A DNA stretch of 52,597 bases from an uncultured Pseudomonadales bacterium (GTDB taxonomy: Bacteria > Patescibacteriota > Microgenomatia > UBA1400 > UBA12108), in assembly GCA_964349305.1 (NCBI GenBank), contig CAYGFS010000003.1, forward strand, positions 1 through 52,597. Reading direction: 5' to 3'. Within the stretch, counting starts at the first letter, position 1; the number at the start of each line of letters is the position of its first letter. Both the position numbers and the translations under genes were made by a program. Below, piece by piece: positions 3,250-25,430 of this stretch. The notes below the pieces were generated by a model. The model had not been told where the DNA came from and searched no databases. It was given only the letters and a program-made list of their open reading frames with translations.

Positions 3250-4056
3250 ATGCTACCAATCTTAGTCAATTTGGGACCAGTCAAAATTTATTCCATGGGA
3301 GTGTGTCTGGTAATTGGTCTATTTCTCTCGTTGTATTTCTGGTGGAAAATGGGGAGAGATGAACATTTTGACGAAATTGCGTTGTTTGATGGATACTTTT
3401 TATCGCTAATAACATTTCTCTTTGCTGGCCGACTCGGATATGTATTAACACACGCGAGTGATCTGGGGACTTTTTATCGGTCGATTGCTTTACTTGCTTA
3501 CCCCGGGATTAATACCGTGGTGGGGATTGTGGCAGCCATAATATTTATTATTTTGTTCGCCAGGTCGCACGGATGGGATGAGTGGAAGGTAGCGGACTCG
3601 GTAGCCGTGGCATTGTCGATAGTCCTGATATTTGGCAGCTTGGGTGGACTGTTGAACGGTAACAATCCTGGCATGCCCGCGAGCTGGGGACTAATCTACC
3701 CTGGCCAAGAAACGCCGAGAGTACCGCTCGATATCCTGATGATTGCGTGGTCGGTGATTACTTTTGGGGTCGTGTCACGGGTGCGGAAAAATTTTCGCTT
3801 TTACTCGTGGTACAAAGGCGAATCCAGTATGGCACAAGAGGGACTAGCCAGTTTGATTTTTGTCATGCTGGTGGGGATTTATTATCTGGGAGCACCATGG
3901 ATCGACCAAAACGTCTGGAAGGTGGGGGTAATGCCTGGACAATTTCTTGTAGGCTTAATATGTGTGGGGGTGAGCGGACTTTTGATATACAAACGAGTGG
4001 GTAGACGGAACGAGGGCTTATGGAGTAAGCTAAAGAGTGTTATAAGGAGAAAGTAA
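3250..4056 (+). CDS. lgt: prolipoprotein diacylglyceryl transferase-like
   Basis: 268 aa and polytopic. The N-terminal ..GPVKIYSMGVCLVIGLF.. and the AGRLGY motif are typical of Lgt. lspA lies two genes downstream. Confidence 0.75.
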   Translation: MLPILVNLGPVKIYSMGVCLVIGLFLSLYFWWKMGRDEHFDEIALFDGYFLSLITFLFAGRLGYVLTHASDLGTFYRSIALLAYPGINTVVGIVAAIIFIILFARSHGWDEWKVADSVAVALSIVLIFGSLGGLLNGNNPGMPASWGLIYPGQETPRVPLDILMIAWSVITFGVVSRVRKNFRFYSWYKGESSMAQEGLASLIFVMLVGIYYLGAPWIDQNVWKVGVMPGQFLVGLICVGVSGLLIYKRVGRRNEGLWSKLKSVIRRK

Positions 4057-4058
4057 TT

Positions 4059-4415
4059 ATGCAGTATCCAAGAAATGTGTTGCAGTCGGTGTGGGATTAT
4101 TTAAAGAAACTGGAGGGGGACTTGCTTAAACGCAGGAGCTCCCTCGCCAAAGAAGATCCGTTTGCGGATACCAGTAGACTCAATGACAATGCCAGTGACG
4201 ATACTGAAGCCGCTGAGCAGTTTGGTCACGCCCAAGCCGCGACCCTGTCGGCAGAAACCAGCGACGCACTCAAACGAGTACAGCAAGCAATGAAGCGGGT
4301 GGATGATGGGAGCTATGGTAAATGTACCAATTGTGGGAACATGATAGACACCGACCGGCTCGGAATAGATCCGACGGCGGCGCTGTGTATGAACTGTGCC
4401 AAAAAGAAGAAATGA
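4059..4415 (+). CDS. DksA/TraR-family C4 zinc-finger protein
   Basis: 118 aa with C-terminal CTNCGNMIDTDRLGIDPTAALCMNC (CxxC-x17-CxxC). AAGGAG at 4044..4049 serves as the SD. Confidence 0.8.
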   Translation: MQYPRNVLQSVWDYLKKLEGDLLKRRSSLAKEDPFADTSRLNDNASDDTEAAEQFGHAQAATLSAETSDALKRVQQAMKRVDDGSYGKCTNCGNMIDTDRLGIDPTAALCMNCAKKKK

Positions 4416-4768
4416 ACATTTGGCTTTTGCTGTGCTTGGATTTGTTGTTAAAATATTTCGCGGTGCGCGGGGATTATGCGGTAATTAATCAGGGATTTTC
4501 TTTTGGGGTGTTAATGGGATCGGAATGGGTGTTTTGGATTATATTATCCGTATTATTTGTTTGGCTGTATCGACATAAAATGTGGATGATTTTGGCTGGG
4601 GGAGCAGCCAACGTGGTATCTCGGATTGTGTGGGGCGGGGTGGTGGATTACTGGAATTTCTTTGGTATTTTTCATAATAATTTGGCGGACTGGATGATTG
4701 TGGGCGGGATGGTGATGTACGTCTCGCAACGAAAAAATTATCCGTCGGTGTCGGACGAAAATTTGTGA
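4412..4768 (+). CDS. lspA: lipoprotein signal peptidase II
   Basis: The ORF track gives 4322..4768. I use the ATG at 4412 (MNIWLLLCLD..), which forms an ATGA overlap with the preceding stop. It has four TM segments plus the NQGFSFGV and VVDYWNF..NNLADW motifs typical of LspA. Confidence 0.75.
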   Translation: MNIWLLLCLDLLLKYFAVRGDYAVINQGFSFGVLMGSEWVFWIILSVLFVWLYRHKMWMILAGGAANVVSRIVWGGVVDYWNFFGIFHNNLADWMIVGGMVMYVSQRKNYPSVSDENL

Positions 4769-4925
4769 GAACTGCCACTCTCGCTAACCATAATTTTGGT
4801 TTGCGGACTGATATTTCTTTCACGCCTCAGCGTAGTCCTTTGCTTCGCAAAATTACGCTTCAGCTTGAAGTGTCATATCGTATGCTCACAAAATTAGATT
4901 TTCGAGAGTGCTATATAATGACGTT

Positions 4926-5687
4926 ATGGATATTCCCATCATCTTTGAAGACAGTGAAATAGTAGTGATTGATAAGCCCAGCGGGGTGGTGTGCAACAGG
5001 GCCGAGACGGTGGAGGTAGAGACGCTGCAAGATTGGTGGGATGGGAGATACAAAATCTCAAATCATAAATTCTCCAATGCTCAAATTGAGGATGAGAAGT
5101 ACTTTATAGAGCGCAGTGGTCTCGTACACAGACTGGATAGAGAGACCAGTGGGGTGATGGTGATGGCCAAGACAGTCACAGCGTTTGTCAGTTTGCTGCG
5201 CCAGTTCAAGGAGCGAGGGGTGCACAAGCAGTATATGGCACTAACTCACGGGTACTGGGACAGCCGGGAGGGCGATATCAATCTGCCAATTGGGAGGCGG
5301 AGAGATGATCGAAAAAAGTTTGGCGTGCGGGAGGATGGGCGCGAGAGCGTGACCCACTACGAAGTAATCAAAGAATATACTAGCTGGGAGTTCCCCAAGG
5401 AACTCAAAGTGGATGATAGGGGATATGTCGGATTTACTCTGGTCAAATTTTTGCCGAAAACCGGACGGACCCACCAGATTCGAGTGCACGCCAAACAGAT
5501 GGGTCACCCGATTGTTGGGGACTTTGATTATGCGGGGCGCAAGCGCAATAGGGAGGATCGTAAGTGGTGTAACCGGGTCATGCTGCAGGCTCAAAGAATC
5601 GAGTTTGAGCACCCCCGTAACGGAAAAAGAATTCATTTTGAATCGAAGGGTGAAGAGTTGAATGAAGTATTGAAGTATTTTAAATAA
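4926..5687 (+). CDS. RluA-family pseudouridine synthase
   Basis: Catalytic motif HRLDRETSGVMV, plus IIFEDSEIVVIDKPSG and HQIRVH. The ATG at 4926 is preferred over the GTG at 4908 because TATAAT at 4914..4919 lies 6 nt upstream. Confidence 0.9.
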   Translation: MDIPIIFEDSEIVVIDKPSGVVCNRAETVEVETLQDWWDGRYKISNHKFSNAQIEDEKYFIERSGLVHRLDRETSGVMVMAKTVTAFVSLLRQFKERGVHKQYMALTHGYWDSREGDINLPIGRRRDDRKKFGVREDGRESVTHYEVIKEYTSWEFPKELKVDDRGYVGFTLVKFLPKTGRTHQIRVHAKQMGHPIVGDFDYAGRKRNREDRKWCNRVMLQAQRIEFEHPRNGKRIHFESKGEELNEVLKYFK

Positions 5688-6822
5688 TGAGCATCGCGTC
5701 GCCAAAAGAGAAGAAGCGATAGTTTTCTTGGATTGCGATCGCGTAAGCTTTACCCAAAAGTGAATCGGCAAAATTGGTAAATGTTTCGGGTGAGTTGGGG
5801 TAGGTACAGAATGCTGAGACGAGCATGAGGAGGGTGGAGCCGGGGAGGTGAAAATTGGTCAGGAGCGCGTCAACTTGCTGAAACTGATAGGGAGGATAGA
5901 TAAATATGGAAGTGGAGTGGGAGCCGGGCTGCAGAAGTTCCGAACACTCGCCTATAGTCGTGCAAGGTTCGGAACTTTGTAAAGCGGCAGATTCCAAGGC
6001 GCGCATGGTGGTGGTGCCGATCGAGAGTAATTTTTGACCTGATTGCTTGAGGGTGCGAATATGAGCAGCAGTAGTATTGGAGATGGTGTAGGATTCGGCG
6101 TGCATGTGGTGATCCTCGATATTATTATCTTTGACGGGGAGAAAAGTACCCAGTCCGACGTTCAAGGTGAGCTCGTTCCAGCTATGATCTTGTTTGATCT
6201 GTTTGAGTAGTTCTGGCGTGAAGTGGAGACCGGCTGTGGGAGCGGCAGCAGAAAAGCCATATTTGGCGTAGATGGTCTGGTAATCGGCAGAGTTGCCCAG
6301 GAGCTTTTTGATGTAGGGAGGAGTGGGCATGGTTCCGAGCTGAGACAGGGTTGTGCGCAGCGCTGACTCTTCTTGGTTGAAGTGGATGGTACGTTCGATG
6401 TCTGAAACTGCGATGATTTTTCCTATGAGGACTGTCCTTTCGTCTGCCGACGAGCCCTTCTCGGCTTGCAGCCGGGAATTCCTTTTAAGGACAGTCCTCT
6501 CAAAAAAGATGACATCGCCGACCTTGAGTCCGGGACGAGCAATGCAGCGATAGCGAGAGTGGCCAAGGGGAACGGTCAGTAAGATCTCGACTTTGCCGCC
6601 GCTAGGCTTATGACCCAAGAGCCGAGCAGGAAAAACTTTGGTGTTGTTGGCGACCACAAAATAATCACGAGGTAGGAGAGCGGGCAGATCGTAGATATGA
6701 TGATGGGTAATACTCCCAGTCTGGCGATTGATCAGCATGAGCCGAGCTGAGTCGCGGGGTACGGCGGCTTCTTGGGCGATGGCGTCCCCTGGCAAGCGGT
6801 AACTGAATTGTGAAAGAAGCAT
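5680..6822 (-). CDS. queA: S-adenosylmethionine:tRNA ribosyltransferase-isomerase
   Basis: 380 aa. Shows YxLP..IAQ, GTTTMRALESAA and TNFHLPGSTLLMLVSAF, all characteristic of QueA. Confidence 0.95.
   Translation of the reverse strand: MLLSQFSYRLPGDAIAQEAAVPRDSARLMLINRQTGSITHHHIYDLPALLPRDYFVVANNTKVFPARLLGHKPSGGKVEILLTVPLGHSRYRCIARPGLKVGDVIFFERTVLKRNSRLQAEKGSSADERTVLIGKIIAVSDIERTIHFNQEESALRTTLSQLGTMPTPPYIKKLLGNSADYQTIYAKYGFSAAAPTAGLHFTPELLKQIKQDHSWNELTLNVGLGTFLPVKDNNIEDHHMHAESYTISNTTAAHIRTLKQSGQKLLSIGTTTMRALESAALQSSEPCTTIGECSELLQPGSHSTSIFIYPPYQFQQVDALLTNFHLPGSTLLMLVSAFCTYPNSPETFTNFADSLLGKAYAIAIQENYRFFSFGDAMLII
5929..5982. repeat. inverted pair of the same REP-like element inside queA
   Basis: The right copy at 5961..5982 (TGCAAGGTTCGGAACTTTGTAA) has a 20-nt core identical to the RAYT-locus copies. 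The left copy at 5929..5950 (CTGCAGAAGTTCCGAACACTCG) is inverted and diverged. Confidence 0.85.
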
Positions 6823-8449: not shown

Positions 8450-9154
8450 ATGTCAGGGCATAGTAAATGGAGTACGATCAAACACAAAAAAGCCGCCAAT
8501 GATGCTGTCAAAGGTAGTGTGTTTACCAAGATGGCCAAGGGAATCACGATTGCTGTAAAGAAGGGTGGCGGAGTAGGGGATCCTGATATGAACTTTTCGC
8601 TGCGTCTAGCGGTGGACAAAGCTCGCAGCGTGAATATGCCCAAGGAAAATATTGACCGAGCAATCGCCAAGGGGATGGGTAAAGGCGGGGTAGAGCTGGC
8701 CGAATTGACGATCGAGGCCTTTGCGCCCGACGGTGTTTTAGTGATTCTTGAAGTAGTCTCCGATAGTCGCAACCGAGCAGTGTCCGAGATCAGGACATTG
8801 ATCGAAAAGCATGGTGGTCGGATGGGAGAACCAGGGAGTGTTATGCACTCTTTTGAAAAATGCGGGATTGTTCATACTCAGCACAAAGTCGACGAGGGTC
8901 TCCAGTTGGAGTTAATAGATTTGGGGATGAGTGACATGGTAGAAGAAGAGGGTCAGACGACTATTTATACAGCGCCAGAAAGTATGCACGGCGTCACTAA
9001 ATATTTGCACAGCAGGGGAGTCACGGCTGGGGGGATGATAGGCTACCGACCTAAAAATACAGTGGAATTACCTGATTCTACGCGGGCTGAGGCATTCCTC
9101 GAAGCAATCGCAGAATACGAAGATGTACAGGAGGTGTATGCCAATTTGGGATAG
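8450..9154 (+). CDS. yebC: YebC/PmpR-family transcriptional regulator
   Basis: Shows the signature N-terminus MSGHSKWSTIKHKKA, and the 234-aa length is typical of the family. Confidence 0.9.
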   Translation: MSGHSKWSTIKHKKAANDAVKGSVFTKMAKGITIAVKKGGGVGDPDMNFSLRLAVDKARSVNMPKENIDRAIAKGMGKGGVELAELTIEAFAPDGVLVILEVVSDSRNRAVSEIRTLIEKHGGRMGEPGSVMHSFEKCGIVHTQHKVDEGLQLELIDLGMSDMVEEEGQTTIYTAPESMHGVTKYLHSRGVTAGGMIGYRPKNTVELPDSTRAEAFLEAIAEYEDVQEVYANLG

Positions 9155-18685: not shown

Positions 18686-21451
18686 TCAGACTTCCTCTTC
18701 CTCGGCATCCTGTAGGGTAGTAACACTAGTGACGACGTCGCCGGCGGCGGGGCGCATAAGGATGACTCCCTGAGTGGAGCGGCCAAGAACCTTGATGTTT
18801 TTGAGCGGGAGTTTGATGACCTGGGCTTGTTTGGTGGTGATCACGACCTGTTCATCGTCCTCCGTCACCATGCGAACAGCGGCAATATCACCGGTGCGCT
18901 CAGACAGCTCAGCGACTTTGACCCCCTGCCCGCCTCGCTTTTGGTCAGGGTATTCGCCGACGTCGGTGCGCTTGCCCAGACCTTTTTCGGTGACTACCAA
19001 AATTTCGCGGAAGAATTTGCGGCGCTTGTCGTCGGGTTTAGGAGGGGTGATCTCGACTGTTTCCATCGCAATCACGGCATCATCCCCTTTGAGGGTCATA
19101 CCTTTGACACCCATGGTGTCGCGGCCGGTGGCGGTCACGTCAGTTTCTTTAAATTTGATCGATTTGCCGCCCTTGGTGACCAGGATCAAGTAGTTTTGGC
19201 CGTGGCTAATCTCGACTTTGATCAGCTGATCGTTATCGCGCAAAGCGATGCCGATCTTGCCGCTATTGCGGATGTTGGCGTATTCGGTGAGCGGGGTCTT
19301 TTTGATCATGCCATTGCGGGTGGCCATGGTAATAAAGTGACCCTTGTCATTGAGGAGATCTTTGGACAAGGTTAGGACTGCTTGGACCATTTCACCCTGC
19401 TGGATATCGAGGAGATTGATAATGGCTTGGCCTTTGGCGGTCCGACTGCCCTCGGGGAGCTCGAAAACGCGCATGCTATACACCTTGCCGGTATTGGTAA
19501 AGAAGAGCGCAAAATCGTGAGTATTGCCAACGGTCATGTGAAGGATCTCGTCGGTGTCTTTGGTGGTCATCCCCACTACCCCTTTGCCACCGCGGCGCTG
19601 GGTACGATAGGTTGAGAGCGGCATGCGCTTGACGTAACCGTCGCGAGTGATGGCTACCAAGTTGTCTTCGGCTGCCACCAGATCTTCTTCGCTAAACTCG
19701 CCGAGTTTACCTTTGATGACTTTGGTTTTGCGGGGATCGCCGTAGATGGCTTTAAGCTCGGCCAACTCTTTGACGATGGTAGACAGAATTGCCTTGGGAT
19801 CTTTGAGTAGTGCCAACAGTTCGTTGATGCGCACCATGAGGGCGTTGTATTCATCTTCGATCTTTTGGCGCTCGAGGGCACTGAGCCGGCGCAGCTGCAT
19901 ATCGAGGATGGCCACCGCTTGGATCTCACTAAAGCCAAACTTTTTGATTAAACTGGCTTTGGCGTCTTCGGTGTCTTTACTGGCACGGATCGTTTTAATG
20001 ACTTCGTCGAGGTGATCGAGGGCTATTTTTAATCCCTCCAAGATGTGGATGCGGGCGCGATTTTCTTTGAGTTCAAACTGGGAGCGGCGGACTATCACGG
20101 TTTGGCGGTGTTTGACGTAATGACTGAGGATGGTTTTGAGATTCATTAGGTGGGGGGTACCGACCTCATCAAGCGCCACCATGTTGGCGGGGAAACTATT
20201 CTGGAGCTCGGTGTGCTTGTAGAGATTGTTTAAGACGGATTTGGGTTTACTGGCTTTTTTGAGTTCGATCACGATGCGCATGCCTTCGCGGTCGGATTCG
20301 TCGCGGAGGTCAGAGATACCGTCGATTTTTTTGTCGCGAACCAGGTCGGCAATTTTTTGGATCAATTTGGCTTTGTTGACTTGATAAGGGATCTCGGTCA
20401 CCACTATTTGGAATTTCCCCGACTTGGTCTCTTCGATCTCGGCCACGGCGCGGGTGACTACTCTCCCCTTGCCCGTAGCATAAACTTCGCGGATAGCGAC
20501 GGCGTCGTAGATCACGCCCCCCGTGGGGAAATCGGGTCCCTGGACGTGCTCGAGGAGATCGTCTACAGTGGCTGCTGAGGTGAATTCTCCGGTTAGTTCT
20601 CCATATGGCCTAATCTCAATATCTTTGTCATCCGTGATTTCTTTGGCGCGAGGCGAGGTACCCATAGAGATGAGTTTGGTGGTGGCGTCGATGATTTCGC
20701 CAATATTGTGGGTGGGGATCTTGGTGGCCATACCGACTGCAATTCCGTCTGATCCCATGAGGAGGAGGTTGGGGAGACGGGCGGGCATGACGGTGGGCTC
20801 CTGGAAAGTGCCGTCAAAGTTGTCGATCCAGTCGACTGTGTCTTTGTCTAGATCAGCGAGGATTTCTCCCGTGATCTTGGCTAGTCTAGCCTCGGTGTAA
20901 CGCATGGCGGCAGGAGAATCTCCGTCAACCGAACCAAAGTTGCCTTGGCCGTCTACGAGCATGTAGCGCATGGAGAAATCTTGGGCGAGACGAGCTAGGG
21001 CGTCGTAGACTGCAGTGTCACCGTGGGGGTGGTACTTACCCAGTACTTCTCCCACAATGCGGGCGCATTTTTTGTATTTGGCTGGAGGTAAAAGAGCGAG
21101 CTCTTTCATGCCAAAAAGAATGCGGCGGTGAACAGGCTTTAAACCGTCGCGGGCATCGGGGAGCGCACGGGAGACGATGACGGACATGGCGTAGTCGAGG
21201 TAGGACTTTTTCATTTCATCGACCACTCCGACGGTCGCGATCTTGCCAAACTTGGTTTCTTCGATATCCCAGGGCTTTTGGGCACCCACAGTGAGGAAGG
21301 AGGTGCGGTCGGCAACAGGCTGCAAAGGTTCCGTTTGAGATTCAAGTTCGGAACTATCCTTCACTTCGTTGCGGACCGCTGGAAGTTCCGAACTTTCCAC
21401 CTTCGTTTCTTCATCAAGGTCCAATGGTTTCAAAATGCTCTCGTCAGCCAT
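18686..21451 (-). CDS. gyrA: DNA gyrase subunit A (with about 70-aa N-terminal extension)
   Basis: [28 protein letters not shown], the active-site segment [10 protein letters not shown], and C-terminal beta-pinwheel repeats. Confidence 0.97.
21321..21396. repeat. three degenerate REP-core copies inside the gyrA 5' extension
   Basis: TGCAAAGGTTCCG at 21321..21333, CAAGTTCGGAACT at 21343..21355, and GAAGTTCCGAACTTT at 21382..21396. Confidence 0.6.
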
Positions 21452-24652: not shown

Positions 24653-24675
24653 TTACAAGGTTCGGAACTTTGTAA
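24653..24675. repeat. REP-like palindrome copy A (immediately 3' of the RAYT stop)
   Basis: TTACAAGGTTCGGAACTTTGTAA. 11-bp stem with one G-T mismatch. Confidence 0.9.
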
Positions 24676-25353
24676 TTACTGATCTTCGTTGACGTCGAGT
24701 GTTATTTTTTCAATATTGCCAACGTCCCCTCCATCTTCGACAAAACCTTTATATTCCTGAGGCGGATTTTTGCGGTACCTTCCTAGTAAAGTAGCCTTAT
24801 CGATCCAAGGAGTATCAATATCGTTAATATAGTTGTAATAAGACGAGTATTTATACTCAGATAATTTACAAGGTTCGGAACTTTGTAAATGCAGCGGATT
24901 TCTGTGAATATACTTCGAGAGGTAGAACCATTGATATTCGTTAGTTACGAGTACGTTTTTGTATTTTCCTTGGAAAATAGTGCCTGAGTGATGGTGTCTA
25001 TCGTTGAAATACATGGAGTATCCAATGCTCACTCTTCTCATGAGATCCGAAATGGTTAAGGTGTTGTTCTCTTGTTTAATCATGAAATGAAAATGATTTG
25101 GCATGAGGCAGTATGCCAGGAGAGAACAGCTGCGAGGTTCGACTGCAAGGTTCGGAACTTTGTAATCCTTGGGTTTTCGACTGAGAGTGCTTTGAGCGAT
25201 CCCCCGGGGATGGAGCAAATAGTAGCTTAGAATTTCTGTAAAAACTTGATAGTCTTCGGCATCCAGGAAGAGCTTTTGCTGGTGAGCCCCCCTGTTGTAG
25301 ATGTGATAATAACAACCTGGTACAAATATGCGCTGGTAATAAATACTGGGCAT
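24676..25353 (-). CDS. REP-associated tyrosine transposase (RAYT; IS200-like Y1/HUH family)
   Basis: YHIYNRG, HUH motif in AYCLMPNHFHFMI, QGKYK, and the SKYIHRNP tyrosine motif. 225 aa with no tnpB partner. Confidence 0.85.
   Translation of the reverse strand: MPSIYYQRIFVPGCYYHIYNRGAHQQKLFLDAEDYQVFTEILSYYLLHPRGIAQSTLSRKPKDYKVPNLAVEPRSCSLLAYCLMPNHFHFMIKQENNTLTISDLMRRVSIGYSMYFNDRHHHSGTIFQGKYKNVLVTNEYQWFYLSKYIHRNPLHLQSSEPCKLSEYKYSSYYNYINDIDTPWIDKATLLGRYRKNPPQEYKGFVEDGGDVGNIEKITLDVNEDQ
24866..24888. repeat. REP-like palindrome copy B (inside RAYT CDS, translated ..LQSSEPC..)
   Basis: Identical 23-mer TTACAAGGTTCGGAACTTTGTAA. Confidence 0.9.
25144..25165. repeat. REP-like palindrome copy C (inside RAYT CDS, translated ..YKVPNLA..)
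   Basis: TGCAAGGTTCGGAACTTTGTAA. The 20-nt core is identical. It is preceded by a partial duplication, GAGGTTCGAC. Confidence 0.9.
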
Positions 25354-25363
25354 GGATTCATTA

Positions 25364-25386
25364 TTACAAGGTTCGGAACTTTGTAA
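25364..25386. repeat. REP-like palindrome copy D (10 nt 5' of the RAYT start, in the RAYT/pilB divergent region)
   Basis: Identical 23-mer. Confidence 0.9.
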
Positions 25387-25430
25387 AGTGTCCTCTACAA
25401 ATGACAGTGCATTTAATGTACTATGAATGT

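Follow-up and report, generated by a model that had tools for sequence, protein, structure and literature searches.

A RAYT-like gene of the Candidate Phyla Radiation with REP-like palindromes on its flanks and inside its reading frame

An open reading frame (ORF) that remains intact while holding two exact copies of a palindrome that also stands on either side of it raises the question of what these palindromes are to the gene, and of why the copies inside match those outside. The case comes from a stretch of 52,597 nt (contig CAYGFS010000003.1 of assembly GCA_964349305.1; the window in what follows) of an uncultured bacterium placed in the Patescibacteria, or Candidate Phyla Radiation (CPR). 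The gene encodes a protein resembling the tyrosine transposases that go with repetitive extragenic palindromes (REPs), known as RAYTs, and REP-like palindromes accompany it. In the interpretation that we consider probable, what we have here is a REPtron-like unit belonging to a large CPR clade of RAYT-like proteins, in other words a low-copy, vertically inherited gene together with the palindrome that its product recognises.

The gene and its four palindromes

The features at the gene are the following (positions in the window):

24676..25353, minus strand: RAYT-like Y1/HUH gene, 225 aa, open, with HUH motif H87-F-H89 and catalytic tyrosine Y148 in YIHRNP
25364..25386, plus strand: upstream copy of the palindrome, TTACAAGGTTCGGAACTTTGTAA, 10 nt ahead of the start codon
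25146..25165, plus strand: internal copy at site A, codons 64-70, translated YKVPNLA, in the loop before the HUH strand
24866..24888, plus strand: internal copy at site B, codons 156-162, translated LQSSEPC, in the coil right after the catalytic tyrosine helix
24653..24675, plus strand: downstream copy, adjoining the stop codon

An exact search for the 20-mer CAAGGTTCGGAACTTTGTAA on the plus strand returned positions 24656, 24869, 25146 and 25367, all in one orientation and at spacings of 213, 277 and 221 nt, just as a preliminary description of this DNA had reported. The count of four given there is right for the gene; it overlooked a fifth exact copy on the same strand, at 5963-5982 within the ORF for QueA. 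Together with diverged cores at 5937, 21346 and 21385, this copy places the palindrome elsewhere in the genome as well, as a REP-like repeat was expected to be. Dinucleotide-preserving shuffles of the window gave no match to the 20-mer, even with three mismatches permitted. Mis-assembly is excluded, since assemblies made independently from different samples show this four-copy layout again (homologous loci L082 and L083, and again L085 and L086).

In its extended form the palindrome is 23 nt long, TTACAAGG TTC G GAA CTTTGTAA (ending in ..TTTGTAA), and its unit can be written TTAC-AAAG..CCTT-GTAA, with no GT[AG]G tag at the 5' foot. Three of the four copies at the gene have this form (24653-24675, 24866-24888 and 25364-25386), while those at 25146 and 5963 have 8-bp arms only; the 11-bp stem once ascribed to all four thus holds for the three extended copies and not for the one at 25146. 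The palindrome is near-perfect around a single central base, so that the real hairpin would have a stem of about 10 bp with a 3-nt loop; it would also be weak. The only imperfect position of the 23-nt stem reads G.T on the plus strand and A.C on the minus strand. Folding as single-stranded DNA (ssDNA), a check that had been proposed for this repeat, bears out a hairpin on the plus strand (-4.5 kcal/mol, z -4.2; minus strand -3.5), but one that is weak overall, and the copy at 25146 (-2.2 kcal/mol) folds no better than shuffles. No known RNA family was found by Rfam between 24300 and 25800.

By profile, motifs and predicted fold, the 225-aa protein is a RAYT-like Y1/HUH enzyme. This agrees with the preliminary description, which had drawn attention to the open ORF and to its PNHFHFM and YIHRNP motifs. 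For the Pfam family Y1_Tnp (PF01797) the score was 32.4 bits (E 1.1e-7), where the cut-off stands at 23, and the tyrosine motif is of the Y---NP type, as in class 2 enzymes and RAYTs. Both H87-F-H89 and Y148 are invariant in an alignment of 27 homologues with 39-77% identity. An AlphaFold model (predicted local distance difference test, pLDDT, 83) places the HUH motif on a strand (87-94) and the tyrosine on a helix (139-155); in the PDB, Foldseek ranked 4er8_A first (E 1e-7), a structure of the E. coli RAYT in complex with a REP hairpin, and the transposases of ISDra2, IS608 and IS200 next. The protein additionally has a C-terminal extension of ~70 aa. Homologues in the database number 4468, and those with names belong to Patescibacteria/CPR.

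The gene lies between a pilB-like ATPase gene, which is divergently transcribed, and holB, after which gyrB-ppa-gyrA follow, in the window, in L082/L083 and in L084, where the proteins are 77% (L082/L083) and 70% (L084) identical to that of the window. This shared chromosomal position indicates descent in place: the RAYT-like gene is vertically inherited. A low gene copy number, vertical inheritance and divergent paralogues, all of them expected of RAYTs, were found in the window and in data from metagenome-assembled genomes (MAGs). At a more distant locus, L085 (63% identical; 3803-6242), the RAYT-like gene comes after a prepilin peptidase gene and not between holB and pilB; at the holB-pilB junction there, the pilB call is split into two ORFs of 297 and 292 aa, and no remnant of a palindrome was seen.

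Palindromes across homologous loci

How general this arrangement is can be judged from the DNA of 80 homologous loci from reference genomes, in which repeated 11-mers were sought around each gene; layouts were counted over 84 RAYT loci and compared with 241 displaced control windows. Nearly every locus has its own palindrome, mostly of the form ..AAGG NNN N NNN CCTT.., and no GTAG was found in the other loci. An upstream copy, at -20 to -90 nt, is present at 64 of the 84 loci (1 of 241 controls), and the genome-specific palindrome stands on both flanks at 55 of them (0 of 241 controls), with the downstream copy just past the stop codon. Internal copies occur at 31/84 loci as against 4/241 controls, and they gather mainly in two stretches: +155..214 nt, with 17 cases (query residues ~52-72), and +422..520 nt, with 21 (query residues 157-163). 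Within the gene and 150 nt on either side we counted 108 copies (32 loci), against 24 across 517 kb of flanking DNA, where the density is ~0.05 copies per kb. The link between REP-like palindromes and the gene that had been drawn from the window therefore extends, with flanking and internal copies that are specific to each genome, to the homologous loci. The four-copy unit described earlier was correct as far as it went; the family-wide layout and the concerted evolution of the copies had been missed.

This concerted evolution is seen in the fact that all copies in one genome are identical or near-identical, while genomes differ from each other. The window has four identical copies of TTACAAAGTTCCGAACCTTGTAA, and L082 has four identical copies of TTACAAAGTTACGAACCTTGTAA (..GTTACGAAC..). 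Four copies of ..CAAAGTTACGATCCTTG.. are found at L084, one mismatched and one inverted, and L085 carries four identical copies of ..CAAAGGACGGATCCTTG.. (..AAAGGACGGATCCTTG..) as well as a dispersed one. When the window is compared with L082, the palindrome codons match at 49 of 51 nucleotides and at 17 of 17 third positions, as against 72% of nucleotides and 50% of third positions in the remainder of the gene.

The same signal can be read from proteins. In 28 of 46 of them, a single 17-mer could encode both the heptapeptide at site A and the hexapeptide at site B, each in a frame of its own, and nine further proteins are off by a single nucleotide; of 1306 mismatched control pairs, 7 did the same. 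The variants of the 17-mer that appear in this test number at least 11. A single nucleotide change thus accounts for a replacement of P by T at site A and of S by Y at site B, and a second pair of changes across the sites (N to I together with E to D) is likewise the two-frame reading of one nucleotide change. Across clades, internal copies occupy all three frames and both orientations of the central base, and the peptides that they encode are unrelated (QGYEPC, PKGPGPVG, LTKGRTLSK, QGDAL, KGQAL, TRSDLV, PSQAW, HPFKGS, FKRLNLL and others). The frozen synonymous positions, the shared changes and the two-frame 17-mers together argue that constraint acts on the DNA and not on the peptides. From these comparisons of sequences we conclude that the internal copies are constrained as DNA rather than as peptide, and that in-frame and flanking copies change in step.

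As to where the internal copies sit and how they may have arisen, the AlphaFold model puts site A in a loop before the HUH strand (residues 48-75, coil with low pLDDT) and site B in coil right after the tyrosine helix. Both are poorly ordered loops, in keeping with the variable linkers in which they had been suspected to lie. The further suggestion that the two segments are insertions needs to be divided. Near homologues carry like peptides at both sites (HLQSYEPCK, KDYKVTNLV and others), and relative to them the segments are not insertions, because these homologues carry their own palindromes there; for the family as a whole an insertion origin is plausible, since the loops that hold a palindrome are the longer ones. 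When the 84 proteins are arranged in a neighbour-joining tree, the internal sites prove to be specific to clades. In one clade, for example, the site-A loop is fixed at 36 aa and holds no palindrome, and site B measures 3-5 aa without a palindrome (L041, L009) and 9-18 aa with one, in the sister loci. A second clade reads its site-A palindrome in one fixed frame (K-G-x-x-F) and keeps site B short, and the clade of the window has palindromes at both sites. Clade-specific loops and differing frames point to several independent insertions into two tolerant loops, after which the copies would have persisted for a long time.

Two further ideas about these copies were considered and set aside. Some shorter homologues (P0046, P0051, P0038) could be taken for products of deletion between palindromes, but they look like truncated calls or frame variants. 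A switch by recombination between copies, which would turn the gene on and off, is set aside as well, given that only 213 of the three spacings (213, 277 and 221 nt) would be in frame and that no variant contigs were seen.

Variation in the downstream copy was observed as well. At L084 (4172-4188) and at the C-termini of P0010, P0017, P0019 and P0046, this copy lies in inverted orientation across the end of the ORF, so that in some relatives it supplies the final residues (..ELQGS, ..NGSL) and the stop codon. The downstream palindrome of L001 differs in another way, having its inner arms swapped (TTTACAACGAACGGTTCTTTGTAAA).

Dispersed copies, promoter and competing explanations

Further features of the window bear on what the enzyme and its palindromes may do:

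5937..5982, plus strand: inverted doublet in QueA, in which the exact 20-mer occupies 5963-5982 and its decayed partner is a core at 5937-5945
21346..21393, plus strand: two diverged core copies, inverted, in the N-terminal extension of GyrA, in frame, with cores at 21346 and 21385
25360..25387, minus strand: promoter-like site around the upstream palindrome, with -35 TTTACA, a 16-nt spacer and a TG-extended -10 AATAAT

All copies of the window outside the RAYT-like gene are in coding sequence. In the QueA ORF (5680..6822, minus strand) the doublet is in frame and translated as mirror peptides, LQSSEPC..ECSELLQ, a segment that amounts to an insertion of 10-12 aa relative to the solved QueA structures 1VKY and 1YY3. 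The GyrA ORF (18686..21451, minus strand) has a decayed doublet, GTTCGGAAC and GTTCCGAAC, in an N-terminal extension of ~60 aa. Genomes were scanned with the degenerate 17-mer CAAGGTTCSGAACCTTG, and copy counts are lower bounds because the MAGs are incomplete. MAG070 has 10 exact copies, 3 at the gene and 7 elsewhere, and one of the dispersed copies is an inverted doublet lying in frame in an ORF with an arginyl-tRNA-synthetase-like motif. A Woesebacteria MAG has 4-5 copies, all near the gene, and MAG DS4.bin43 (JAJYQQ01) has 5, of which 3 are at a third paralogue. The three paralogues of the latter genome (L006, L026 and L112) each have their own distinct palindrome; two are accompanied by flanking inverted doublets only, and the third by upstream, site-A and downstream copies. 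A search of metagenomes of the Joint Genome Institute (JGI) with the 20-mer gave five contigs with single matches, and only L091 was informative, with an exact inverted 20-mer doublet (1029-1065, 4 nt apart) that an ORF at least 710 aa long reads in frame as HSLQGSELCNSQSSEPCN.

Some matches were not taken as evidence of mobility. In 596 Gb of reference genomes, a collection that excludes the source genome, the 20-mer had a single exact match, in an RpoN gene of a Chloroflexi MAG; as about one match is expected by chance (2 x 5.96e11 / 4^20), it was disregarded. Matches from the degenerate 17-mer scan are likewise mostly due to chance, ~70 being expected. Some are natural coding matches to conserved motifs (L101:401, L158:4658), where the 17-mer CAAGGTTCSGAACCTTG gives KVRNL within an EF-P-like ORF and RFGTL within one that has a 5'-nuclease-like motif. 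The EF-P-like copy of MAG070 matches the extended arms specific to that genome, and such motifs might seed or capture palindromes. Lastly, Aquirufa nivalisilvae, a Bacteroidota isolate (NZ_SEWX01), has at least 5 exact copies of CAAGGTTCSGAACCTTG on different contigs (L110, L119, L120, L143, L149), which exceeds chance for one genome; they may belong to another family of repeats, unrelated to ours, whose core is the same.

The promoter-like site matches the consensus at 10 of 12 positions, and the upstream palindrome fills its spacer. Its hexamers are kept in L082, L084, L085 and L001, where the remaining leader diverges. The -10 hexamer ends 6 nt ahead of the ATG, and the arrangement suggests a near-leaderless transcript together with an autoregulation based on the palindrome. 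On the other side of the gene, between the downstream palindrome and the start of holB (24625), the segment 24626-24652 contains TATAAAAT about 13 nt past the palindrome. It is kept in L082 too (after position 8945) and may be the -10 of a holB promoter; the arm of the downstream palindrome offers a -35-like TTGTAA, at a spacing to TATAAAAT that seems too short.

Strand may matter as well. GC skew is positive (0.10-0.25) in every 5-kb block of the window, whatever the orientation of the genes, and the plus strand is therefore taken as leading-strand sequence and hence as lagging-strand template. All five exact copies show the G.T form on this strand. The activity of IS608-type TnpA is coupled to the lagging-strand template, and a G.T hairpin placed there would, by analogy, fit such enzymes, a hint that we regard as weak.

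Taken together, a REPtron-like unit might work as follows. The enzyme would bind the palindrome as an ssDNA hairpin at the replication fork, by analogy with E. coli TnpAREP and IS608 TnpA, and would cut and rejoin the DNA beside it, spreading a few copies, singly or as inverted doublets. In compact genomes such dispersed copies would often land in frame in loops of housekeeping genes. The same activity could update the copies at the enzyme's own gene, with the result that a change in the recognised sequence would reach all four. The internal copies may have begun as insertions into the two tolerant loops, several times independently, and their frame and orientation would differ between clades for that reason. 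For the clade of the window, the upstream copy, being in the promoter spacer, would repress the gene when bound or extruded, which would amount to autoregulation.

This leads us to the points that weigh against such an interpretation. Binding and cleavage are attributed to the enzyme from family membership alone. The NCBIfam equivalog REP_Tyr_transpos (NF047646) scored 47 bits, under its cut-off of 80, and the family profile found no solved structure among PDB sequences, so that the comparison of folds alone links the protein to RAYTs. The palindromes are without the canonical 5' GT[AG]G tag of REPs, the hairpins predicted for them are weak (-2 to -4.5 kcal/mol), and near-perfect palindromes with a single centre would suit a dimeric binder of double-stranded DNA equally. 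RAYT-associated repeats are abundant, typically >100 per genome, whereas the counts here were 10, 4-5 and 5, each a lower bound; with such a low copy number, dissemination of the repeat is barely visible in the three incomplete MAGs. The promoter is a consensus match only. The argument from strand draws on five copies in a single window, of which four belong to one gene, and a family-wide count of G.T against A.C wobbles (14 vs 6) is noisy. Finally, short-tract gene conversion, or selection at each site, would yield the same pattern of homogenisation.

Among competing explanations, the one that survives best is that the palindromes are operators in double-stranded DNA for a dimeric regulator, or for the C-terminal part of the protein itself, and form a transcriptional control array with promoter occlusion and internal roadblocks. 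Palindromes of this kind, near-perfect around one central base, are typical dimer sites; the upstream copy lies exactly between the -35-like and -10-like hexamers, copies are very few per genome and concentrated at the gene, and the protein does have an extension of ~70 aa at its C-terminus. However, it also has the HUH fold and the motifs of enzymes that act on ssDNA hairpins, and its best structural match is a RAYT-hairpin complex. Inverted doublets in unrelated housekeeping genes correspond to REP/REPIN-type mobility and not to the behaviour of operators, and the A.C / G.T stem position hints at pairing within a strand. On balance we hold an operator array to be unlikely.

Less likely still, and in our judgement distinctly improbable, is that the 734-bp unit is an autonomous IS200-like insertion sequence which transposes as a whole, with the outer palindromes as its subterminal hairpins. 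There is one copy in the 52.6-kb window, three lineages share its chromosomal position at 70-77% protein identity, and the paralogues within a genome are divergent and have their own palindromes instead of being identical copies. The motif is Y---NP (class 2, RAYT-like) where IS200 has Y---Q, and in place of distinct ends there is an identical palindrome on the left and on the right. These observations outweigh a size and layout like those of IS200 (tnpA alone, with hairpins near start and stop) and the location of the 63% identical gene of L085, which is elsewhere in the pilus cluster, with a holB-pilB junction that lacks it. The last explanation, that the internal matches are incidental and LQSSEPC and YKVPNLA are selected as peptides, would fit the like peptides of near homologues at both sites, but it is refuted, and its probability is negligible, as from clade to clade the peptides are wholly different while the DNA agrees in every case with the non-coding copies on the flanks in that genome, as synonymous positions do not vary (17/17), and as the paired amino-acid changes of the two-frame test are readings of one nucleotide change.

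If the REPtron-like unit is accepted, it can still be asked what the in-frame copies do. We lean towards the view that they are tolerated but actively homogenised. That they are working cis-elements, with the enzyme acting on the hairpins of its own gene for a control of dosage at each replication or for re-templating of the recognition sequence, is a tentative possibility that we think less probable than its opposite. In that event, gene and target would be physically inseparable and would co-evolve as one unit.

Relation to known systems and significance

It is established that REPs flank RAYT genes (REPtrons), that every paralogue has a REP family to itself and that enzyme and REP co-evolve (PMC6006769, PMC8266576). 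E. coli TnpAREP/RAYT (subclass 2.2, 4ER8) has the same Y1/HUH fold, the Y---NP motif and a low-copy gene with flanking cognate palindromes, and the same studies describe for it a palindrome family per paralogue and the co-evolution of protein and palindrome. The system described here differs from it in several respects. Sequence similarity at the profile level is not detectable, and the NCBIfam score stays under the equivalog cut-off; palindromes of the window type have neither the GT[AG]G foot nor the bulge; copies amount to tens at most, as against hundreds in E. coli; and two cognate copies lie in the reading frame of a protein with an extra C-terminal region of ~70 aa.

Our preliminary description held that in-frame copies of a RAYT's own substrate had not been described. 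This must be withdrawn: Quentin, Siguier, Chandler and Fichant (2018), where they deal with subclass 2.4, report tnpAREP genes that carry in-frame REPs (PMC6006769). In-frame cognate palindromes are thus already described in another branch of these enzymes, and subclass 2.4 (group 4 of Bertels; Cyanobacteria and Bacteroidetes), as portrayed in those sections, is the only described case of the same phenomenon, with in-frame cognate REPs in a peripheral variable region in addition to flanking ones. The differences, again as far as those sections go, concern position, repeat and motifs. Here the internal sites are before the HUH motif (~64-70, with H87) and after Y148 (156-162); the REPs of subclass 2.4 are long and GTAG-tagged or of the 'double foot' type, whereas ours are short palindromes of the AAGG..CCTT type; and the motifs are WQ and YIxNNP there, but FQ and YIHRNP here. 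The taxa differ too, CPR being outside the sample covered in those sections. The insertions in subclass 2.4 are described there as variable and probably neutral, and the same pages do not mention concerted evolution or frozen synonymous sites (PMC6006769). By motifs and length, our protein looks closest to subclass 2.1, TnpAY1/TIRYT, for which the passages on that subclass give NH[YF]H, FQ, Y[IV]HLNP and ~238 aa (here NHFH, FQ, 225 aa and YIHRNP, the last of which departs from the pattern at one position). These passages note a C-terminal extension, report no REPs and mention long terminal inverted repeats (GGGGWSAS) in some members, as opposed to the short flanking and internal palindromes found here. 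A search of the RAYT/REP literature found nothing relevant on CPR/Patescibacteria.

Two other kinds of element invite comparison. The TnpA enzymes of IS200/IS605 (IS608, ISDra2) share the HUH/Y1 core and subterminal hairpins on one strand, but they belong to subclass 1.1 with Y---Q in place of Y---NP, and they are mobile, multi-copy elements with distinct ends, in contrast to a single syntenic gene with identical copies. Rickettsia palindromic elements (RPEs), for their part, reportedly lie in frame in functional genes, an observation ascribed to Ogata et al. in 2000. They are 100-150 bp long and have no dedicated transposase, whereas the repeat described here is ~20 bp long, or ~45 bp as a doublet, and goes together with a RAYT-like gene. 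REPs within replication, repair and tRNA-synthetase genes were listed by Di Nocera et al. (2013; PMC3733652). What RPEs and such intragenic REPs have in common with our palindromes is that short palindromes are in frame in loops or termini of housekeeping genes, the hosts here being QueA, GyrA and the ORF with an arginyl-tRNA-synthetase-like motif.

What is new, therefore, is a CPR clade outside earlier samples, internal positions before the HUH motif and after the tyrosine, a repeat type that is short, has no GTAG foot and is low in copy number, and direct evidence that in-frame copies are constrained as DNA and change with the flanking ones. Because one 17-mer underlies both loop peptides, each in a different frame, a protein sequence reveals part of the DNA specificity of these enzymes, and this holds wherever in-frame copies are present, functional or not. 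Four copies fit into 0.75 kb, and two lie within the ORF, so that a 1-kb metagenomic contig captures both the enzyme and its site, and two-frame back-translation can provide the pair even from a protein sequence alone. More than 4000 homologues, many of them on short contigs, thereby constitute a large natural dataset for the code by which HUH enzymes recognise hairpins, which is of interest for HUH-tag and ssDNA-editing tools, and they offer a way to time the turnover of specificity.

For the biology of these enzymes, an open question of the field is how domesticated RAYT-type transposases and their palindromes stay matched over the long term, and this clade is unusually clean material for it. 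The repeat that overlaps the enzyme's own predicted promoter provides a testable model of autoregulation. Finally, in the compact genomes of CPR, where intergenic space is scant, palindromic repeats would survive mainly in coding loops of housekeeping genes.

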